Shown here piece by piece: positions 43,200 through 53,591 of a stretch of 64,000 bases of DNA. A program made the position numbers and the translations under genes. Each line of letters starts with the position of its first letter. The stretch's first letter is position 1. Under the pieces are notes generated by a model. That model was not told the origin of the DNA. It made no database searches and saw only the letters and a program-made list of their open reading frames with translations. The DNA is taken from positions 2,594-66,593 of the forward strand of contig JAZQAB010000011.1 in the NCBI GenBank assembly GCA_045545055.1, read 5' to 3'. Origin of the DNA: Clostridia bacterium. Lineage in GTDB: Bacteria > Bacillota > Clostridia > UMGS1883.

Positions 43200-44631
43200 G
43201 CGTATTATCCGTGCAATGACACTGCTTCTTTCTCTTTTCTTTGTGCTAATGCTTCACCTGAATTATTTTATAATATTTGAGTCAAGGGAGTATGTGGAGG
43301 ACGTCCATAATCCCAGACTTTATGAGGTTACCCGCGGAACGATTTACGATAGAACAGGGGAAACCATTTTGGCAAAGAGCGAGGGAGAGGGAAATCTCCA
43401 AAAGCGTGTCTACCCCTACGGTAAGCTGTATGCTCATGTAGTGGGGCATTTCAGCAGAGAGTATGGCAGAAGCGGACTTGAAAAGGAGTATGACAGCTAT
43501 TTAAGTGCAAACCCCACGATGCTCAGTGTCCTTTACGAAAAGGGAAAGAATGTTGAAAACAAAGGACAGGACTTGTATCTGACTATTGACCATAATCTGA
43601 CCTCTCTTGTGGATAAAACAGTAAAAAATCGTTTCGGAGAGAGAAAAAACGCAAATGTTATTGTAATGAATCCCAATACGGGGGAGGTTTACTGTGCTTA
43701 TTCGTCAAAGGCTTTTAATCCAAATATTGACGAAATGAAAAAGGTCATAAGCACGGGCGGAAAAATTGATTACCGCTTTGATGCTGTGAATAATCAATTC
43801 TGCCCCGGCTCTACATTTAAAATAATAACTGCGGCAGCGGCTATTGATAACGGGCTTGAGGACTATGAGGTAATGGACGAAACAGGCTCAATTAATGTAG
43901 GCGGTGCAGTGTTTGGAAATGACGGCTCAAAGGCAATGGGGAAGACCGATATGCGAAAAGCAATCGTCAAATCAAGCAATGTTTACTTTACCGATATTTC
44001 AAAGGAAATAGGTAAGGAAAATATGATTGAAAGCCTTGACAAGTTTCTGGTAACGAAAAAGCTTCCTTTTGATGGGTTAAATACGATAGAAAGCGGTATC
44101 ACGATATTAAGCAGGGAAGGAAATTCAGTTAAAACCGTCAATCTTGATGATTGCGACACTGCGGCAATGGCATCGATTGCTTTCGGGCAGGAGCCTGTAA
44201 AGTTAAGCCCCCTTCATATGGCTTTGGCAGTGTCGGCAATAGCAAATGACGGAAAAATTCCTGTGCCATACCTTGTAGAAACCTCAAGACGCAATAGCAA
44301 GGTGGACTACAGTGCGGAAAGAGCCGTTTTGTCAAGAGGCTGCAGCGAGCGTGCCGCACGTCTTATAAGGACATATATGGTTGATTGCGTTGAGGAAGGA
44401 ACGGGGAGAAGTGCAAGAATCTCAGGATTTAAGTTCGGTGGAAAAACGGGTACGGCTCAGGTAGAAGGAAAATCCTCGCACGCATGGTATGTCGGCTTTG
44501 CTCCTGCAAATAATCCGCAGATTGCATTCTGCGTAATGGTGGAAAACGGAGGCTACGGCGGAAGCACTTGCGGACCGATTGTAAAGGAAATTATTAAATA
44601 TTGCAGAAACAGTGACCTTATAGCAGAGTAG
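43186..44631 (+). CDS. class B penicillin-binding protein (PBP2-type transpeptidase)
   Basis: The SxxK (STFK), SSN and KTG(T) motifs are all present, and there is an N-terminal TM anchor. Confidence 0.85.
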   Translation: MNLNKRIIRAMTLLLSLFFVLMLHLNYFIIFESREYVEDVHNPRLYEVTRGTIYDRTGETILAKSEGEGNLQKRVYPYGKLYAHVVGHFSREYGRSGLEKEYDSYLSANPTMLSVLYEKGKNVENKGQDLYLTIDHNLTSLVDKTVKNRFGERKNANVIVMNPNTGEVYCAYSSKAFNPNIDEMKKVISTGGKIDYRFDAVNNQFCPGSTFKIITAAAAIDNGLEDYEVMDETGSINVGGAVFGNDGSKAMGKTDMRKAIVKSSNVYFTDISKEIGKENMIESLDKFLVTKKLPFDGLNTIESGITILSREGNSVKTVNLDDCDTAAMASIAFGQEPVKLSPLHMALAVSAIANDGKIPVPYLVETSRRNSKVDYSAERAVLSRGCSERAARLIRTYMVDCVEEGTGRSARISGFKFGGKTGTAQVEGKSSHAWYVGFAPANNPQIAFCVMVENGGYGGSTCGPIVKEIIKYCRNSDLIAE

Positions 44632-44635
44632 AATA

Positions 44636-44676
44636 GTAGAAAAGAAGTAATCAGCCGATTACTTCTTTTCTACTAT
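44636..44676 (+). terminator. bidirectional intrinsic terminator
   Basis: agaaaagaagtaatc / gattacttcttttct hairpin between convergent genes. Confidence 0.65.
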
Positions 44677-45579
44677 TGCCTTTATTGAGGAGCAATATTC
44701 TACGGGACTCAGCCCCGTTACTTTTTTAAATTGTCTTGAAAAATAATGAATGCTTGAATAGCCTAAAATGTAGGAAATCTGAGATATGTTGTAATTATCC
44801 TCACGCAGATATTTTTTAGCAAGGTCTATTTTTAAATTTATAAAATACTCCATAATGGTCATGTCAAAGGTGTTACGGAAGACGGTAGCAATCGTAGTTT
44901 TGTTAAAACCACTGTAACGAACCAACTCATTTATGGTTATGTTTTCTGTAATATGATCTACCATATAGTTAACAAGCATATTGCAAAGGGCACTTTCACG
45001 GTTAATGCTCATTTGTGAACGGGAAAGAGATGCTGCAGTTCCTCTCAAAAAAGAGATGAGAAGCTCTGCTATGTATTGCTTCACCAATTGCTCGGAGCCT
45101 AATATTGCTTCCTTTTTTCTTGTAATTTGTGTGGTGTACGGATTGTTAAGCGGTGTTGAAAATGCACCCGTGTACTCGGAAATAATTTTAGAAATAATTG
45201 TTTTATGCTCCTGCCCCACGGTCAGCATTTTGTCTTCAAAAAAGCTCATATCGGGAGAGGTACATTCAAAGGAGATAATCGCCACGTTGTTTGCAATTTG
45301 AGGGGAACAGTGAAGGGTGTGCCATTGATTGGGCTTATGGAAAAAGATATTTCCCTGTGGGAGTATAAATTCCCTGTCCTCCGCAAAAACAGTAATGTCG
45401 CCCTTATCGGCATAAACAGCTTCCCAGAAATCATGAGCTTCACCCTCAAATTTAAAATTTGCGGGATATTCAAAATAATGTACGCTGTAAAGCTTACCGA
45501 TATTTATAGTAGTTCTAAGCTTAGCTCCGTGGTACTTTTCCATATCATCGCCTCCATTCTCACTATAGCATGAAAGCAT
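44659..45579 (-). CDS. AraC family transcriptional regulator (cupin + HTH)
   Basis: The C-terminus is an AraC HTH (YSSIHYFSRQFKKVTGLSPVEY). Confidence 0.8.
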   Translation of the reverse strand: MLSCYSENGGDDMEKYHGAKLRTTINIGKLYSVHYFEYPANFKFEGEAHDFWEAVYADKGDITVFAEDREFILPQGNIFFHKPNQWHTLHCSPQIANNVAIISFECTSPDMSFFEDKMLTVGQEHKTIISKIISEYTGAFSTPLNNPYTTQITRKKEAILGSEQLVKQYIAELLISFLRGTAASLSRSQMSINRESALCNMLVNYMVDHITENITINELVRYSGFNKTTIATVFRNTFDMTIMEYFINLKIDLAKKYLREDNYNISQISYILGYSSIHYFSRQFKKVTGLSPVEYCSSIKAIVEKK

Positions 45580-46467: not shown

Positions 46468-46503
46468 TAAAAACATAGAGTATATATAAAGGCGGTGTTT
46501 TAC

Positions 46504-47352
46504 ATGGGCAAAGATGCAACACTTGTTGTTATGGCTGCCGGAATGGGAAGCCGATTCGGTGGACTCAAGCAGCTTGAGCCTATCGGACCGGGGGGAGAGG
46601 TAATACTTGACCTTTCTGTTTTCGATGCACAAAAGGCAGGCTTTAATAAAGTTGTTTTTATCATTCGCAGAGATATAGAAAAGGATTTTCGTGAAATAGT
46701 GGGAAGCAGAATAGAAAAGAGAATCAAGACGGAATACGTTTTTCAGGATATGGAGAAGCTTCCCTCAGGCTTTACTGCTCCCGAAGGAAGAACAAAGCCG
46801 TGGGGAACAGGTCACGCAGTGTATTGCTGCAAAGACGTGGTGAAGGAGCCTTTCGCTCTAATCAATGCAGATGACTATTACGGACAGAGTGCATTTAAGA
46901 CCATTTACGATGAATTAACTTCATCAGACTTAACCTGTATGGTAGGATATAAGCTGGGAAATACTCTTACCGAAAACGGCACTGTTGCACGAGGCGTGTG
47001 CGAGGTAGAGGGTGATGTGCTCAAAAGCATAACCGAGCATACCTCACTTGATAAAAACAGTGGTATTCCGCTGAATACTACTGTTTCCATGAATATGTGG
47101 GGACTAAGACCTGAGATTTTTGACCGCGTAGAAGCAGACTTTGTAAAGTTTTTGGAAAACCTATCAAATCCCATGAAAGATGAATTCTATATCCCCTTTG
47201 TAATCGACCGTGCCATAAAGGAAAATGGCGAAAGGGTAAAAGTTCTCACAACCGAAGAAAAATGGTACGGCGTTACTTACCGTGAGGATAAGGAATCGGT
47301 AGTAAGTGCCGTTAAAAAGCTTTTTGCGGAGGGAATATACGATGGGATCTAA
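46504..47352 (+). CDS. sugar-1-phosphate nucleotidyltransferase (MurU/GlmU-N-like)
   Basis: An NTP_transferase G-loop (LVVMAAGMGSRFGGLKQL). RBS aaaggcgg sits 8 nt upstream of the ATG at 46504. Confidence 0.6.
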   Translation: MGKDATLVVMAAGMGSRFGGLKQLEPIGPGGEVILDLSVFDAQKAGFNKVVFIIRRDIEKDFREIVGSRIEKRIKTEYVFQDMEKLPSGFTAPEGRTKPWGTGHAVYCCKDVVKEPFALINADDYYGQSAFKTIYDELTSSDLTCMVGYKLGNTLTENGTVARGVCEVEGDVLKSITEHTSLDKNSGIPLNTTVSMNMWGLRPEIFDRVEADFVKFLENLSNPMKDEFYIPFVIDRAIKENGERVKVLTTEEKWYGVTYREDKESVVSAVKKLFAEGIYDGI

Positions 47353-48433
47353 CAGCTACAATCTTAAAGAAATACTTGCTAAATTTAATATTGATACCAA
47401 TATAGAGCTTTACGGAAACGGACATATTAACGATACATACCTTTGTGAGACCTCTCCCAGGTTCATTTTGCAGAAAATTAATACAAATGTCTTCAAGGAC
47501 CCCGGTGCCGTTATGGAGAACATTTATAATGTAACACGCCATGTAAGGGAGAAAATAAAAGAGGCAGGCGGAGAACCTGACCGTGAAACTCTTAATGTTA
47601 TCCCGACAAAGGCAGGAGAAATTTATTATACTCATCCTGACGGTGCGGCATTCCGTATGTATAAATTTATTGAACGTTCCGTAAGCTATGACGTTGCAGA
47701 GCGTCCCGAAATTCTTACCTATGCAGGAGAGGCGTTCGGAAAATTTCAGAGAATGTTAAGTGATTTCCCCGCCGAAAAGCTGCATGAAACCATTGTGGAC
47801 TTTCACAATACACCCGTGCGTGTAAAGCAGCTTCAGGAAGCTGTGAAAAATAATATCTCCGGAAGACTTGACTGTGTCAAGGATGAGGTTAAGTTTGCAC
47901 TTGATTACAGCAGATATTCGTCGGAAATTACCGATGCGATGGAATCGGGAGATGTGCCGCTCAGGGTAACTCATAATGATACTAAGCTCAACAATGTTCT
48001 TTTTGATGATAAAACTGATGAGGGCGTTTGCGTAATAGATCTTGACACGGTAATGCCCGGCTCACTTTTGTATGATTTCGGTGATGCACTTCGCTTCGGA
48101 GCCTCCTCCTGTGTTGAAGATGAAACTGACCTTAGTAAGGTGTATTTTGACCTTGATAAGTATGAAGCGTTTGCAAAGGGCTTCCTTGGCGAGGTTGGAG
48201 CAAATCTTACTAAAAAAGAGGCACAGCTTCTTCCGCTTTCCGCACTTCTTATGACATATGAGTGCGGAATAAGATTCCTTGCAGACTATATTAACGGCGA
48301 TACATATTTTAAAATACACAGGGAGCACCATAATCTTGACCGTGCAAGAAACCAGTTTGCACTGGTAAAGGACATAGAAAGAAAGCTTCCCGAAATGGCA
48401 CAAATTGCTCAAAAGTATATTAAAAAAGTGTGA
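47342..48433 (+). CDS. anomeric N-acetylhexosamine 1-kinase-like (APH-fold; NahK/AmgK-like)
   Basis: The start overlaps the upstream stop (ATGGGATCTAA). An aminoglycoside-phosphotransferase-fold Brenner motif (HNDTKLNNVLFD) and IDLDT are present. The N-terminus is NahK-like. Confidence 0.6.
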   Translation: MGSNSYNLKEILAKFNIDTNIELYGNGHINDTYLCETSPRFILQKINTNVFKDPGAVMENIYNVTRHVREKIKEAGGEPDRETLNVIPTKAGEIYYTHPDGAAFRMYKFIERSVSYDVAERPEILTYAGEAFGKFQRMLSDFPAEKLHETIVDFHNTPVRVKQLQEAVKNNISGRLDCVKDEVKFALDYSRYSSEITDAMESGDVPLRVTHNDTKLNNVLFDDKTDEGVCVIDLDTVMPGSLLYDFGDALRFGASSCVEDETDLSKVYFDLDKYEAFAKGFLGEVGANLTKKEAQLLPLSALLMTYECGIRFLADYINGDTYFKIHREHHNLDRARNQFALVKDIERKLPEMAQIAQKYIKKV

Positions 48434-48510
48434 TTGAGTTGAACCGACCCCCAAAAAGTTAGACCAAAAATCTCACGATTGGGCGGTCGGTTCAAGTATC
48501 ACACTTTTTT
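48423..48510 (+). terminator. long imperfect hairpin, bidirectional terminator
   Basis: aaaaaagtgtgat..gaaccgaccc / gggcggtcggttc..atcacactttttt. Convergent genes sit on both sides. Confidence 0.6.
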
Positions 48511-48535
48511 AATATGTTTTTTTCTTTTATCCTTT

Positions 48536-50752
48536 TTAGGAATTAAGGACATCCTTATATTTTTTCCCGGCGTGTTCTTTATTCAGGAGTAAACGTGAGT
48601 TAAGCTTGATTACATCTTCGGGCGTCATCATTTTAAAATAGAAATATACCAGGCGTCTTATTCTGTCTGCGTTTATATCCGAATGAATAGGGGAGAGAAT
48701 GTAGCCGTTGCCGCCCTCCTGAGCATATTCCTCAAACATACAGATAATCATATTTGCAAAGTCGGTAATAAAACTGTCTTTGTCGGGAATTTCAGCACCG
48801 AACATCTGCTTTGCCAGTGTATACTGCGTATGGGCATCGACAGAGGAAGTATGTCTTTGTAAAAACCAATTATGCCAATATATGAATTTTATTGCCTCAA
48901 CCAGTGCCGTAGCAATGTATTTAAGCGAAAATTCTTCGCCCTTTACCCAATGAGAATATGCCGTTTCGCAGGCTTTAAGCACCCAGAAATAATATCTGGA
49001 ATCATATTCGTCGGGAGAGAGTGTTAAGATGCTTGAGGACGGCAGCTTAATCATATTTGTGACGGTGTCCCATTTGATTTTATCAAAAAGAAATCCGTTT
49101 GCAATATCAAGCATAGCACCTACGTCGCCTGCGGCAGCCTTTCGTTCCAACTTCACATAATCCATGTCCAGCATCAAATCCTGCCTTGTAAAGGCATTGC
49201 ACCATTTGCCGTAAAACCTGCGGCTTCTGTTATAATAATCGGGATCGAGCATAGGAGCATTTTTGCCGCCCTTTCCGTCTGTCATTATTTCAATAAAAAC
49301 CTTGGAAATGGGCTTAATAAGAGACAGAGCCTCCGTTACATCTCCGGCAGTCGGTTCGATTGCGTTCTTCTTCCAATGGGAGCCGAGGTTTCCGAGTTTA
49401 CGAGCCTTATGCATATCCGAGCTTTGTGCGGTGCTCAAATTTCCGTTCTTGAGTATTAAATTAATTTTACCAATCAAGTCAAGGTCCTCGGAAAACAGAT
49501 TAAATTTGGCACAAAGGTTATCGGCAACATACTCAAGAGCCTGCCTGACAGAATTAAGAGCGAGTCTGAAATTATTTTCACCGGATTGAGCTTCGGCATC
49601 CCGGATAAATGAAAATAAGGCGGGATGCTCTTTTTCAGGATTGGTTTCTGCTGAGGTGCCTTCTATATTTTTAAAGGAAACAGCTTTAATATCCGGAAGG
49701 ATATTTCTCTTATAGGAATTTTTTTCGGTTTGATTCTTAGCGGTTGCAATTACTGTTGAGCTGATTGACTGCATCAAGGCGGAAAAGTCTTCTTTTGTTA
49801 TTCCTTTTCCGTCGGGATGAGCATGCCATATGTCGATTACTCTTTTAACTGCGTTTACATAAGAACTTCTCACAACTTTTGCTGAAACAAGCTCTTCAAG
49901 CAGCAAGGTGGTCTCTTTTACCTTTCCGTCCTGCTTAATATCTATGCCGTTAAGCTTGCATATCCTTCTTGTACAGGTCACTGCCACTGCCTGTAATGTC
50001 TTTATCGCCTCGTAAGGCTTATTTTGCTTCATAAAGCTTTTAGCCCTTGAATAGTCCTTGTCGATGGAATTTAAGGCTTGTGCATCCGGGTTCACCGCCA
50101 ACTCCTTCTTTGTCGCCTTTTCGGCATTAACTTTGGCTTCCTTTTGCCGCATAGCTTCAAAAGTACATGGAACGCTGTTAATATTTTTTCCCGATGCACG
50201 CTCTTTAAACAGCTTGAAGATAATTCCCATTGAAATAAAGTATGTTTTTATATCGTAGTCGGAGACAATGCAGGTACCGTCTTCGTATTTGTCAATAAGT
50301 GCAAGTACGCCGTTTACAACATTCATCTGGTCAGGCTTAAAAACAGTGCCCTTTAAAAGCTGTGCTATCTCAAAAATATCCTTTCCCTGTGTATCCAAGG
50401 AGGATTTTTTACAAAACCAAACAAGAATCAGATTGAACATTGTACTCAGATGCTTGAAAGGAACCTTGAAATCTTTCACGGAAGAATTTCGGGAATTCTC
50501 ATTGTGATAGGTGTTTTTTGCATCCGCATATACTTTGGTTATATTCCGGAATTGAGTGTTTATCCGGTCTGTGCAGTTTACTGTATAGATTCCGTCTGTA
50601 GGGCGAATATATACATATACAGAATAGTTCGGTATATCATAGTTGTGCTTGACGGTGTGCGGACAATAAATATTTTTTTCAACAGCAGCCGGCACAGAAG
50701 GATGATTGCTTTCGGATAAAAGAGCGTTAAATATCTTTTTTAAAACAGACAT
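48536..50752 (-). CDS. orphan 738-aa hypothetical protein with central DUF4145/HEPN-like domain
   Basis: A large ORF with no signal peptide. Residues ~380-480 (ALNSVRQALEYVADNL...DMHKARKLGNLGSHW) match the DUF4145 pattern with an Rx6H motif. A second possible Rx5H lies at VKRVIDIWHAH. The rest is unassignable. Confidence 0.5.
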   Translation of the reverse strand: MSVLKKIFNALLSESNHPSVPAAVEKNIYCPHTVKHNYDIPNYSVYVYIRPTDGIYTVNCTDRINTQFRNITKVYADAKNTYHNENSRNSSVKDFKVPFKHLSTMFNLILVWFCKKSSLDTQGKDIFEIAQLLKGTVFKPDQMNVVNGVLALIDKYEDGTCIVSDYDIKTYFISMGIIFKLFKERASGKNINSVPCTFEAMRQKEAKVNAEKATKKELAVNPDAQALNSIDKDYSRAKSFMKQNKPYEAIKTLQAVAVTCTRRICKLNGIDIKQDGKVKETTLLLEELVSAKVVRSSYVNAVKRVIDIWHAHPDGKGITKEDFSALMQSISSTVIATAKNQTEKNSYKRNILPDIKAVSFKNIEGTSAETNPEKEHPALFSFIRDAEAQSGENNFRLALNSVRQALEYVADNLCAKFNLFSEDLDLIGKINLILKNGNLSTAQSSDMHKARKLGNLGSHWKKNAIEPTAGDVTEALSLIKPISKVFIEIMTDGKGGKNAPMLDPDYYNRSRRFYGKWCNAFTRQDLMLDMDYVKLERKAAAGDVGAMLDIANGFLFDKIKWDTVTNMIKLPSSSILTLSPDEYDSRYYFWVLKACETAYSHWVKGEEFSLKYIATALVEAIKFIYWHNWFLQRHTSSVDAHTQYTLAKQMFGAEIPDKDSFITDFANMIICMFEEYAQEGGNGYILSPIHSDINADRIRRLVYFYFKMMTPEDVIKLNSRLLLNKEHAGKKYKDVLNS

Positions 50753-50767
50753 GGTAATTTCTCCCTT

Positions 50768-51661
50768 CTATACTATTACCGAGAATGCACGGGGAATATT
50801 AACTATTTCGGCAAAGGATAATTCTCCGCCGTATTCACCGTCAACCGTCCATTTAATAGGTTCATCGCATTCAAAAGTAACCTTTGATGCCTTAAAGCTT
50901 ATAATATTTTCTGTTTTTTCTATGTTTCCTGTCACAAAAGCTGAAAGAATATTCTGATAACCGAGAGCATTTTTCGGCTTTTTAATAAGAAGCACTTCAA
51001 AAAGACCGTCATTTAGTGAAATGGTAGCACCTAAAGTATGCTTCATTCCCGCAATCTGGAAGGAATTGCTCACCGCACCCAAGATGAAATCATCTTCAAT
51101 AACAACATCGTCAAATTTAACCTTTGCATGTATAACCTTAATTGAAGAAAGCTGGCGTATTCCCTCAATAATATATGCCATGTGCCCGAAAATATTTTTA
51201 AATTCCTGAGAGGTGTCATAGGAAACCGAGGTAAATGCACCAAAAGCCGCAACATAAGCAAAATGCTTATCGTTCATTTTACCTGCATCGCAGAAGAAGG
51301 GACTTCCCTCTACAACCATTTTTGCCGCTTTGCGGACATCGGTGGGAATACCTATAGTTCCTGCAAAATCGTTTGTGCTTCCTGAAGGCAGATATGCCAG
51401 CTTGGGTCTTTTTTCAGGCTCAACACACATCAGGGCACTGACAGCTTCATTCAACATTCCGTCGCCGCCGCAGACAGAAATAACCTCGTATTCTGCCATA
51501 TGCTCTTTAATATATTCATAGCCGTCTTTAGCACATTTTGTAGGGTGGAGTGTAATACAATAATCGTGTGAAGAATATATATCTATAATATCCGAAAGAT
51601 AATGTTTTATCTGAGCTTTGCCGCTTACAGGGTTATAAACGAGTAAAAGTTTCTTTTCCAT
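50768..51661 (-). CDS. diacylglycerol kinase family lipid kinase (YegS/DagK-like)
   Basis: DAGK_cat motifs (LLVYNPVSGK; VCGGDGMLNEAV). Confidence 0.8.
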   Translation of the reverse strand: MEKKLLLVYNPVSGKAQIKHYLSDIIDIYSSHDYCITLHPTKCAKDGYEYIKEHMAEYEVISVCGGDGMLNEAVSALMCVEPEKRPKLAYLPSGSTNDFAGTIGIPTDVRKAAKMVVEGSPFFCDAGKMNDKHFAYVAAFGAFTSVSYDTSQEFKNIFGHMAYIIEGIRQLSSIKVIHAKVKFDDVVIEDDFILGAVSNSFQIAGMKHTLGATISLNDGLFEVLLIKKPKNALGYQNILSAFVTGNIEKTENIISFKASKVTFECDEPIKWTVDGEYGGELSFAEIVNIPRAFSVIV

Positions 51662-51879: not shown

Positions 51880-52347
51880 ATGAGATATGAAGAAATTATC
51901 GAATTTGTACAAAAAAATCTAAAAAAGACTGCTGCCAAGAAAATTGAGAAGCACATAGCTGTTGAATTTGATATTTACGGAGAGGGCGAGGGAGCATTTT
52001 ACGTAGAGGTTAATGACGGTGCTATCACAGTTGAACCCTACGAATATTACGACCGTGACGCTAAGGTTTATATTACAGCCGATGAGCTTGTTAAGCTTGT
52101 AAACGGAGAAAAGACTCCCGAAGAAAGCTTTGCAGAGGGAATTTTGATGATTGAGGGAGATATTGATGCCGCACAGGAGCTTATTAAGCTTGTGAAGGCT
52201 CCCGTAAAAAAGGCAGCGTCAAAGCCTGCCGCAAAGAAAACAGCGGTAAAGAAAGCTCCTGCAAAGAAAGCTGTTAAGGCTGAAAAGGCAATTGTAGAAG
52301 ACACTAAAAAGAAAAGCTCAAAGGTAGCAAAGGACATTAAGAAATAA
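51880..52347 (+). CDS. SCP2 sterol-carrier domain protein with Lys/Ala-rich histone-H1-like tail
   Basis: An SCP2 fold (DGAITVEPYEY...ADELVKLVNGE) is followed by KAPVKKAASKPAAKKTAVKKAPAKKAVKAEKA. Confidence 0.65.
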   Translation: MRYEEIIEFVQKNLKKTAAKKIEKHIAVEFDIYGEGEGAFYVEVNDGAITVEPYEYYDRDAKVYITADELVKLVNGEKTPEESFAEGILMIEGDIDAAQELIKLVKAPVKKAASKPAAKKTAVKKAPAKKAVKAEKAIVEDTKKKSSKVAKDIKK

Positions 52348-52378
52348 ACCCTGCAATCTGCTATGTCTTTACTTTTAT

Positions 52379-52576
52379 AAAAGGGTCTGTAGCAAAATGT
52401 ATAAATATGCACAAACAACAACCGCAGGGGCGACAACGCCTCCCTTGCCTAAAGGGAGGTGGCAACCGTAAGGTTGACGGAGGGATTCCCGGTCGTCCGC
52501 AGGCGGATAATATCCGCCCCTACAGCGGTAAATTCTATTTTGATGCATAAGTATTAGTTTTGCTACAGACCCTTTT
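52379..52576 (+). repeat. 198-bp element with perfect 19-bp terminal inverted repeats (MITE-like / candidate structured RNA)
   Basis: aaaagggtctgtagcaaaa (52379-52397) and its exact reverse complement ttttgctacagaccctttt (52558-52576) flank a GC-rich interior. The interior has nested hairpins (cctccctt/aagggagg; ggcggat/atccgcc). Confidence 0.4.
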
Positions 52577-52664
52577 TAGTATATAGAAATTTGCATTCCC
52601 ATACAGTAAAAGACATTTGATTTTTGACCTGCAAAAATCCACCTCAATTTTCAATTTTCCACTT

Positions 52665-53591
52665 TCAATTTTCAATTTGCAAAGTCTCAATCGCCCGAAG
52701 AAGCTCAGACAGCTTTTCTGTGCGGCGAACAGTCTTAAGAACTTTTTCTTCATTAGGGAAATTCCACATCATAAACAGCCATATTTCCTTTAATTTGTGC
52801 ATTGTAAAATGGTCGGAGGAAAGTATAGCGTTATATTTATCGGCAAGAATGTGAGTGAATTCCACCATTTCTTCCGTAGTAATTCTATCTCCGCCCTTGA
52901 TTTCACGCATGAGTGCGGGGTTTGCCACAGCTCCTCTGCCAAGCATGATGTGGTTTAAACGGGGATATTTTTCTTTGATTTTCATATAGTCGTCGCTTGT
53001 GAATATATTTCCGTTGTAGCAAACGGGGGCACGGCTTTTGTTATACGCTGTCTGAAATGCCTCATGATTTATTTCGCCTTTATAAAAATCCTCACGGCAT
53101 CTGGGGTGCACAATCAATTCCTTAATGGGGTAGCTGTTATAAAGCTCTAAAATTTCATCAAATTCATCGGGGGAGTAAAAGCCGATTCTTGTTTTTATTG
53201 ATATATCAATATGGCTTTTCTCAAAAATTTCATCAAGAAAGCTTTTAAGAAGTTCTTTTTCCCGAAGAAGACCGCTTCCACGTTTTTTATTCACAACAGT
53301 TCCCGACGGACAACCCAAATTCAGATTGATTTCATCGTAGCCGTATTCCTTAACCTTTTGGGCAAATTTTATGAAGGACTCGGAATTATTTGTAAGTGTC
53401 TGCACAATGGGTTTGATAACACTATTATTTTCGGGAAGCATATCCTTAAAACCTTTTCTCCCGATTTTGGTGTTATCGGACGGGGAAATGAAGGGAGTAT
53501 AATATCTATCGCAACTGCCAAAATATTCTGCATGTGTGTTTCGATATACATATGATGTAATACCCTCAAGGGGAGCAAATGATAGTGTCAT
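52665..53591 (-). CDS. dus: tRNA-dihydrouridine synthase
   Basis: Dus family TIM barrel (LAPLEGITSYVYR; catalytic region NLNLGCPS). Confidence 0.8.
   Translation of the reverse strand: MTLSFAPLEGITSYVYRNTHAEYFGSCDRYYTPFISPSDNTKIGRKGFKDMLPENNSVIKPIVQTLTNNSESFIKFAQKVKEYGYDEINLNLGCPSGTVVNKKRGSGLLREKELLKSFLDEIFEKSHIDISIKTRIGFYSPDEFDEILELYNSYPIKELIVHPRCREDFYKGEINHEAFQTAYNKSRAPVCYNGNIFTSDDYMKIKEKYPRLNHIMLGRGAVANPALMREIKGGDRITTEEMVEFTHILADKYNAILSSDHFTMHKLKEIWLFMMWNFPNEEKVLKTVRRTEKLSELLRAIETLQIEN

Follow-up and report, generated by a model that had tools for sequence, protein, structure and literature searches.

Single-gene DUF4145/HEPN ribonucleases (RNases) have been shown to be immune proteins only recently, and precedents for defence by a single DUF4145 gene are RAZR (PMC13017515), BxaP (PMC10799925) and Ishtar (bioRxiv 10.64898/2026.07.06.735840). 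The active site of HEPN RNases is a composite one to which two HEPN domains contribute, and among DUF4145 proteins there are latent RNases that are switched on by assembly (PMC13017515). RAZR is such a latent RNase, which is switched on by oligomerisation and gives an abortive-infection outcome (PMC13017515). In RAZR, BxaP and Ishtar, the non-HEPN part of the protein decides what is sensed. Here we describe a gene for a 738-amino-acid (aa) protein with a DUF4145-type HEPN core, located in a stretch of 64,000 nucleotides from a Clostridia bacterium (assembly GCA_045545055.1, contig JAZQAB010000011.1, positions 2,594 to 66,593), hereafter called the window. By analogy with these systems, we lean towards reading the product as a single-gene cytoplasmic HEPN RNase that acts in conflict with phages or mobile elements, of the abortive-infection type.

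A census with hidden Markov models (HMMs) built from the family gave the domain order psiHEPN-psiHEPN-HEPN(DUF4145)-C domain, where psiHEPN denotes a degenerate HEPN copy. The gene and its parts are:

48536..50752, minus strand: gene for the psiHEPN-psiHEPN-HEPN(DUF4145)-C protein (open reading frame (ORF) list; ATG start, 738 aa, stop codon included)
50195..50560 (aa ~65-186), minus strand: N domain, degenerate and HEPN/DUF4145-like (hhalign)
49760..50071 (aa ~228-331), minus strand: M domain, second degenerate HEPN/DUF4145-like domain (hhalign)
49265..49636 (aa 373-496), minus strand: H domain, DUF4145-type HEPN with its catalytic residues intact (Pfam, Foldseek)
49376..49411, minus strand: predicted RNase active-site helix H448-K-A-R451-K-L-G-N455-L-G-S-H459 (column counts, 71 members)
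48539..49264 (aa 497-738), minus strand: C domain, compact and mostly helical (AlphaFold2, profile searches)

An earlier note on this DNA, made from the sequence alone, had proposed a 738-aa ORF with a DUF4145/HEPN core, and both proposals held: the ORF at 48536..50752 is real, with an ATG start on the minus strand, and Pfam DUF4145 (PF13643) matches aa 393-478 at E 2.3e-7, scoring 31.2 bits where the curated cut-off is 23.1. Among 71 relatives, DUF4145 was matched by 59 and the HEPN family PF05168 by nine. An AlphaFold2 model of the whole protein, calculated from the family alignment, is all-alpha, with a mean predicted local distance difference test (pLDDT) of 90.1 and a predicted template modelling score (pTM) of 0.57. 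When this model was searched against the Protein Data Bank (PDB) with Foldseek, classical HEPN structures were returned (2q00, 1wol, 2hsb, 5yep, 1o3u and 3o10, among which 5yep is the HEPT toxin and 3o10 the sacsin HEPN domain), with probabilities of 0.97-1.0 and target template modelling (TM) scores of 0.6-0.79. The corresponding E-values are weak (0.17-2), since the search was made with the model of all 738 aa, and the alignments were not assigned among the three HEPN-like domains. The structure check suggested with the earlier note thus came out in its favour, in that a HEPN fold is predicted.

The predicted active site lies in a single helix, H448-x2-R451-x3-N455-x3-H459, which is strongly conserved: in the 71-member alignment, H448 is kept in 64, R451 in 67, N455 in 70 and H459 in 69 members, and R403 and E407, on the first helix, are kept in 67-68 of the 71. 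The R-x3-N-x3-H pattern is present in 67 of 82 family proteins. The catalytic spacing is R451-x7-H459 (RKLGNLGSH), so the canonical HEPN spacing Rx4-6H, which had been suggested for this protein, is not the one used. By analogy, R-x7-H is best taken as a DUF4145 variant and no sign of inactivity, because this spacing is shared with RAZR, a DUF4145 RNase whose activity has been shown by experiment; the RAZR residues are R146 and H154, and alanine substitution of either abolishes RNase-dependent phage defence (PMC13017515).

The protein had been called an orphan, and a word-based search indeed gave only two homologues, whereas 85 relatives, 30 of them below 1e-30, were recovered when 1.84 billion cluster representatives were searched exhaustively and without a profile. 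The family comes mostly from Bacillota and gut metagenomes. We then ran HMMs of the four regions (N, M, H and C) over the 86 representatives, including the query. What stays constant is an H domain with C immediately after it, found in about 70 of the 86. Many members begin with H and bear C-terminal extensions, some carry 4-12 Sel1 repeats before H and C, and others have TM2 or SH3_3 fusions. The full N-M-H-C form is restricted to nine members, including the query. P0044 has four HEPN-like copies and retains the motif solely in the copy adjoining the C domain, while in P0079 a zinc ribbon is joined to C and no H is detectable. P0067 (500 aa) possesses an N-terminal TIR domain (E 1e-20), then an H copy without the R, N and H residues, and then the C domain; judged by its sequence, it is an apparent effector swap around a constant C domain. 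Effectors are swapped around a constant module in the same way in immune proteins, and C may therefore be argued to be the sensing or regulatory part.

With regard to defence databases, the PADLOC candidate PDC-M16A was matched by 25 of 71 relatives and PD-T7-4 weakly by one of 71. The matches of the query in PADLOC, NCBIfam and PHROGs were below threshold or generic and were set aside, namely AbiEii (5e-4, on a linker), TfpZ (0.11) and phrog_1305 "DNA binding protein", a generic match that spans the DUF4145 region.

The C domain is confidently folded. Modelled alone with AlphaFold2, it reached a pLDDT of 93.5 and a pTM of 0.92, with nine helices and only isolated bridge residues. Its invariant positions are Y507, G515, L535, A551, F554, R586-Y587-Y588, W590 and A594. 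The domain had no match in Pfam, its profile had none among PDB sequences, and Foldseek gave no fold match in the PDB (best probability 0.14) or among the predicted viral structures of BFVD (best 0.12). PDB sequence matches obtained with the 738-aa protein, the family profile or the C-domain profile (14-3-3, ribosomal protein S20, designed proteins) were regarded as noise. A Sel1 repeat array was also considered and rejected: one 25-residue stretch (KLERKAAAGDVGAMLDIANGF) was the sole part to resemble a Sel1 hairpin, with an hhalign probability of 3% and E 0.013, and Pfam found no Sel1 there. Residues 563-636 give weak, multi-stretch phmmer matches to long proteins (E 3e-6 to 6e-4). These matches (P0078, P0082, P0083, P0085 and P0086) were dismissed as compositional or spurious; the four scanned by Pfam are fibronectin-III/T9SS sorting proteins.

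The two regions in front of H are diverged copies of it. Aligned with the DUF4145-region profile by hhalign, the N region gave a probability of 95.7% and E 1.1e-8 over 114 columns, and the M region 97.0% and E 9.9e-11 over 100 columns. In N the catalytic positions are lost (R to L, N to D, and H at a gap), and the domain has an invariant motif of its own, QMNVVxG (Q142-M143-N144-V145-V146-G148). M is variable at the catalytic positions and the motif Asn is missing. Read from these residues, catalysis appears possible in one HEPN copy only, the H domain. As for the earlier claim that both flanks of the core have no recognisable fold, it stands for the C-terminal 240 aa, which are matchless, and fails for the N-terminal 345 aa, which are two degenerate HEPN copies (hhalign 96-97%).

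We further focused on the conservation of the locus. Exact-match look-ups of the window dagK and kinase proteins returned nothing, and the closest relatives were found by a homology search with the window dagK protein. Its homologue P0087, 98% identical, is encoded on eight contigs, one of which, 196 kb long, belongs to the metagenome-assembled genome (MAG) GCA_017451505.1. All eight align collinearly with the window (83-92% nucleotide identity) in the shared order GroES, GroEL, Dus, SCP2, dagK, convergent kinase, nagB, AraC, penicillin-binding protein (PBP), FtsW and FHA, and all of them are without the HEPN gene. In their gene tables dagK is directly convergent with the kinase gene. By blastn of three of the relatives (L011, L012 and L013) against the window, homology stops at 50768, the dagK stop, and restarts at 48420, in the last codons of the kinase gene. 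The difference is thus a single segment:

48421..50767: one-gene insertion/deletion, 2,347 bp here versus 86 bp in the closest relatives (blastn and gene tables)

The segment contains the HEPN gene and a long hairpin only, and the indel junction also changes the last codons of the kinase gene. In a farther relative, whose dagK is 84% identical, SbcCD follows dagK and there is again no HEPN gene. The presence/absence check proposed together with the earlier note was run in this way, and the gene proved not to be universally conserved, being missing from the collinear locus of its closest relatives. It is accessory and mobile on evolutionary time scales.

The same comparison revealed further differences between the window and its sister genomes. 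In the sister genomes, AraC and the penicillin-binding protein are separated by an Acyl_transf_3 gene of 348 aa (L011 12217-13263) that the window (44621-44633) lacks; this is a second indel of a single gene, no more than 6 kb away from the first. Between Dus and SCP2 the sister genomes have a 170-aa gene with a faint DUF1707 match (L011 6671-7183), in place of which the window shows an unrelated stretch of 317 bp (52367-52683). The NTP_transferase of the nagB/sugar-kinase cluster is intact in the window (285 aa, 46495..47352, plus strand), while the sister MAG lacks 531 bp of it (window 46568-47098) and keeps a remnant ORF of 89-93 aa (L011 10049-10318). The relatives thus seem to have a decayed sugar-salvage operon.

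The borders of the HEPN gene are marked by two elements:

50761..50767, minus strand: ribosome-binding site AAGGGAG, 8 nt before the ATG and right after the dagK stop (sequence read directly)
48425..48507: long imperfect inverted repeat, probable bidirectional terminator, between convergent 3' ends (RNA fold)

The inverted repeat (83 nt) folds at -41.6 kcal/mol with z -6.55, none of 200 shuffled sequences folds equally well, and the repeat extends over the stop codon of the kinase gene on the plus strand. It came or went along with the HEPN gene. In a sister genome a short GGAGGAACTG...CAGTTCCTCC hairpin (L011 8911-8941) is found in place of this repeat. On the other side, dagK (DAGK_cat and YegS_C) is confirmed as the upstream neighbour; its stop is at 50770-50768 and the HEPN gene's ATG at 50752, leaving a gap of 15 bp between the two ORFs. 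Strong terminators had been claimed on both sides. The downstream one stands as a probable terminator, in the form of the hairpin, but a minus-strand scan found no terminator-like site between dagK and the HEPN gene, which refutes the supposed isolation from dagK. The HEPN gene is most likely co-transcribed with dagK, to judge from the 15-bp gap, its own ribosome-binding site and the missing terminator; the strongest promoter-like site for the dagK transcript is at 51746-51719 (10 of 12 matches).

This arrangement brings up a first alternative, that the protein is a physiological RNase or an RNA-binding regulator of the dagK operon (for example in membrane/lipid stress or RNA turnover) and not an immune protein. 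Besides the close spacing, it is favoured by the neighbours in the window, which are all housekeeping (dagK, an APH-family kinase, the NTP_transferase and nagB), and by the fact that no defence island occurs at any homologue locus examined; moreover, inactive HEPN proteins such as MtlR can be regulators (PMC3710099). However, the linkage to dagK is unique to this genome, since the nearest relatives have dagK without the HEPN gene. The full-length orthologues, with 32-44% identity, lie in unrelated contexts: P0001, the closest of them, in a Candidatus Ornithomonoglobus MAG, adjoins an AraC regulator, and others are found with an MJ1673-family gene, with a phosphate two-component system or with dapA/dapB. 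A fifth unrelated context is that of a shorter member of the family, which has surface-protein genes and an ECF-sigma fusion on its flanks. The intact catalytic motif, the occurrence of the family in phages and the TIR-swapped member also speak against a role tied to dagK, and we consider it quite unlikely.

The AraC gene upstream of P0001 (L003 9025-9906, L001 1084-1965) encodes a protein 35% identical, over its full length, to that of the window AraC (44659-45579), which lies 3 kb from the HEPN gene. A conserved AraC partner was rejected, as the sister genomes keep AraC without the HEPN gene, and the resemblance is probably a coincidence or distant synteny.

A second alternative arises from the phage-borne members. 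A family member of 733 aa (L008 7527-9728; also L009 and L010) occurs on three IMG/VR viral contigs and on about 21 human-gut metagenome contigs (among L017-L042) in one context of about 95% identity, so that in our census of metagenome contexts some 21 of 27 loci represent a single (pro)phage context. It adjoins a phage sliding-clamp (DNA polymerase processivity-factor) family, a nucleotidyltransferase family and other PHROG families, and its C-terminal extension matches phrog_8741, a family with function unassigned. The window gene might then be leftover cargo of a phage or mobile element rather than a host-adapted defence, serving competition between elements or superinfection exclusion, or acting as a cis-controlled toxin with the degenerate HEPN as a built-in antitoxin. 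That the commonest metagenome member is (pro)phage-borne beside replication genes, and that the indel is a clean one-gene event, would both fit; HEPN toxins with separate antitoxins are known as well, e.g. HEPN-MNT (fold matches 5yep and 6m6u). Against it, the 2.35-kb segment and its flanks contain no phage, integrase or transposase gene, the junction sequences show no obvious flanking direct repeats (no search aimed at repeats was made), and the base composition is native. We regard this explanation as improbable to a similar degree, and it overlaps in practice with the conflict RNase that we prefer.

The third alternative, an enzyme that resembles Cas13 in having two active HEPN domains within a single chain, goes back to the tandem HEPN arrangement of the earlier note and is already disfavoured to the point of being highly improbable: the M domain, which is truly homologous to DUF4145, does carry R304-VIDIW-H310 (R304-x5-H310, i.e. 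the Rx5H segment, and also R304-x7-H312) in the helix equivalent to the catalytic one, 147 aa upstream of the R451 motif, but R304, H310 and H312 are kept in none of the eight full-length orthologues, the motif Asn is missing in M, N is without all three residues, and the protein holds two Rx4-6H matches where 1.75 are expected by chance. The second Rx5H thus exists, at a chance-level count and with residues that orthologues do not keep. The tandem HEPN arrangement it was taken to indicate is nevertheless real and in fact triple by hhalign; it does not rest on R304-x5-H310, and one copy alone is catalytic.

We therefore return to the conflict RNase, which we judge somewhat more probable than the opposite. 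It is supported by the DUF4145 identity, the conserved catalytic helix, the internal triplication, the accessory status, the scatter of homologues over unrelated contexts, the phage carriage, the modular swaps (TIR, Sel1 and zinc ribbon), the PDC-M16A matches of 25 relatives and the precedents of RAZR, BxaP and Ishtar. Several points weigh against it. First, with respect to genomic context, no defence gene, restriction system, integrase or antitoxin was found beside the gene in the window or in the homologue loci examined (L001-L007 and L036; about eight independent contexts), and therefore support from guilt by association is missing; the "small defence islet" that had been suggested was an inference only, with no known defence gene, integrase or partner adjacent either here or in those loci. 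Nor does any partner gene recur across the approximately eight contexts. Second, with respect to the history of the gene, no mobile-element scars were seen at it, its GC content (0.38-0.44) is the same as that of the flanks, and loss in the relatives, instead of gain here, may account for the indel. Third, with respect to the protein, PADLOC gave no significant match for the query, neither PDC-M16A nor PD-T7-4; at a pTM of 0.57 the predicted mutual placement of the domains is uncertain; the regulatory roles proposed below for the N, M and C domains are purely inferential; and the tight link with dagK could mean a physiological role.

As a mechanism, we propose that the 738-aa protein would be a latent RNase, as are the DUF4145 proteins RAZR and BxaP. 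Its expression probably rides on the dagK transcript. Activity would require the pairing of H domains from two or more molecules, because HEPN RNases need two HEPN domains and a single copy here is predicted to be catalytic. The C domain, as the constant partner of the effector, would sense a phage or mobile-element trigger. The degenerate N and M copies might occupy or shape the H dimer interface, or scaffold the assembly, and masking by N and M would keep the enzyme off until the trigger permits H-H pairing. Indiscriminate RNA cleavage would then halt translation in the infected cell and lead to abortive infection.

A bolder version of this scheme, which we hold to be speculative and on balance rather unlikely, takes the C domain as an undescribed sensor fold of a modular immune family with interchangeable effectors (HEPN mostly, TIR in P0067) and the two fossil HEPN copies as intramolecular decoys that keep the catalytic HEPN monomeric until the trigger arrives. 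We know of no description of autoinhibition by pseudo-dimerisation in HEPN defences. The window subfamily, with its two fossil HEPN copies, offers a natural test case for the regulation of an active HEPN by an inactive one. The locus opens a family of about 70 clusters in which HEPN is joined to the same confidently folded 240-aa domain, with one member in a common human-gut (pro)phage, and if the family is confirmed as a defence, a new sensor domain would be added to the catalogue. The clean one-gene indel and the clear catalytic residues make the system easy to test experimentally.

Two observations on the surroundings may be added. The SCP2 sterol-carrier-like protein (51880-52347, plus strand) ends in a Lys/Ala/Pro-rich, histone-H1-like tail (KAPVKKAASKPAAKKTAVKKAPAKKAVKAEK...), which is unusual for SCP2. 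In an Rfam scan of the whole 64-kb window no family reached the gathering score, i.e. no tRNA, rRNA or riboswitch was found, even upstream of the sugar and cell-wall operons.

Compared with described systems, the protein is of a known kind, the single-gene HEPN/DUF4145 conflict RNase, and it is not a member of RAZR, BxaP or Ishtar. With RAZR/PD-T7-4 (ring-activated zinc-finger RNase; PMC13017515) it shares the single gene, the DUF4145-type HEPN effector and R-x7-H. However, RAZR is small and has an N-terminal Cys4 zinc finger as sensor, whereas in the window protein the active HEPN domain is preceded by two degenerate copies and followed by the 240-aa C domain; Pfam found no zinc ribbon in the query and PADLOC no PD-T7-4, the N-terminus being degenerate HEPN. 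BxaP (PMC10799925) is similar in that its DUF4145 domain precedes an all-helical C-terminal domain with no clear function, and it acts alone in an abortive-infection manner. Going by its published description, it differs in sitting in BREX or type I restriction loci, neither of which is present at the window gene or the homologue loci examined, and in its HEAT-like C-terminus; the window C domain has no HEAT-repeat fold match at a useful probability. Ishtar1/2 (bioRxiv 10.64898/2026.07.06.735840) are anti-plasmid proteins that resemble it as single, widely scattered genes with an N-terminal HEPN domain (DUF4145 or DUF3644) and a C-terminal domain of unknown function, but the Ishtar C domain has five to seven beta-strands and three helices, while that of the window protein is almost wholly helical.

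Cas13 and other dual-HEPN proteins also have several HEPN-fold domains per polypeptide. In Cas13 two catalytic HEPN domains form one site, whereas here one of three copies is predicted to be catalytic and there is no guide-RNA apparatus. The HEPN-MNT type II toxin-antitoxin system needs an adjacent minimal nucleotidyltransferase (MNT) antitoxin gene, which the window gene does not have; the nearby NTP_transferase (46495..47352) is of the sugar-nucleotidyl-transferase type, lies on the opposite strand and is also present, in L011 as an 89-aa remnant, in the relatives without the HEPN gene.

Finally, the survey of Anantharaman et al. 2013 (PMC3710099) listed DUF4145 fusions in Firmicutes with Sel1, zinc ribbon, transmembrane (TM), SH3 and TIR, all of which are found in the H-C family here. 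Because the identical fusions are listed there, the H-C family was glimpsed at the level of architecture in 2013; neither the C domain nor the degenerate HEPN copies nor the psiHEPN-psiHEPN-HEPN-C arrangement was defined in that survey, which tested no function. What is new here is the confidently folded C domain without relatives in Pfam, PDB or BFVD, the psiHEPN-psiHEPN-HEPN-C architecture, and the recurrent pattern that the HEPN copy adjoining C is the sole one to remain catalytic.

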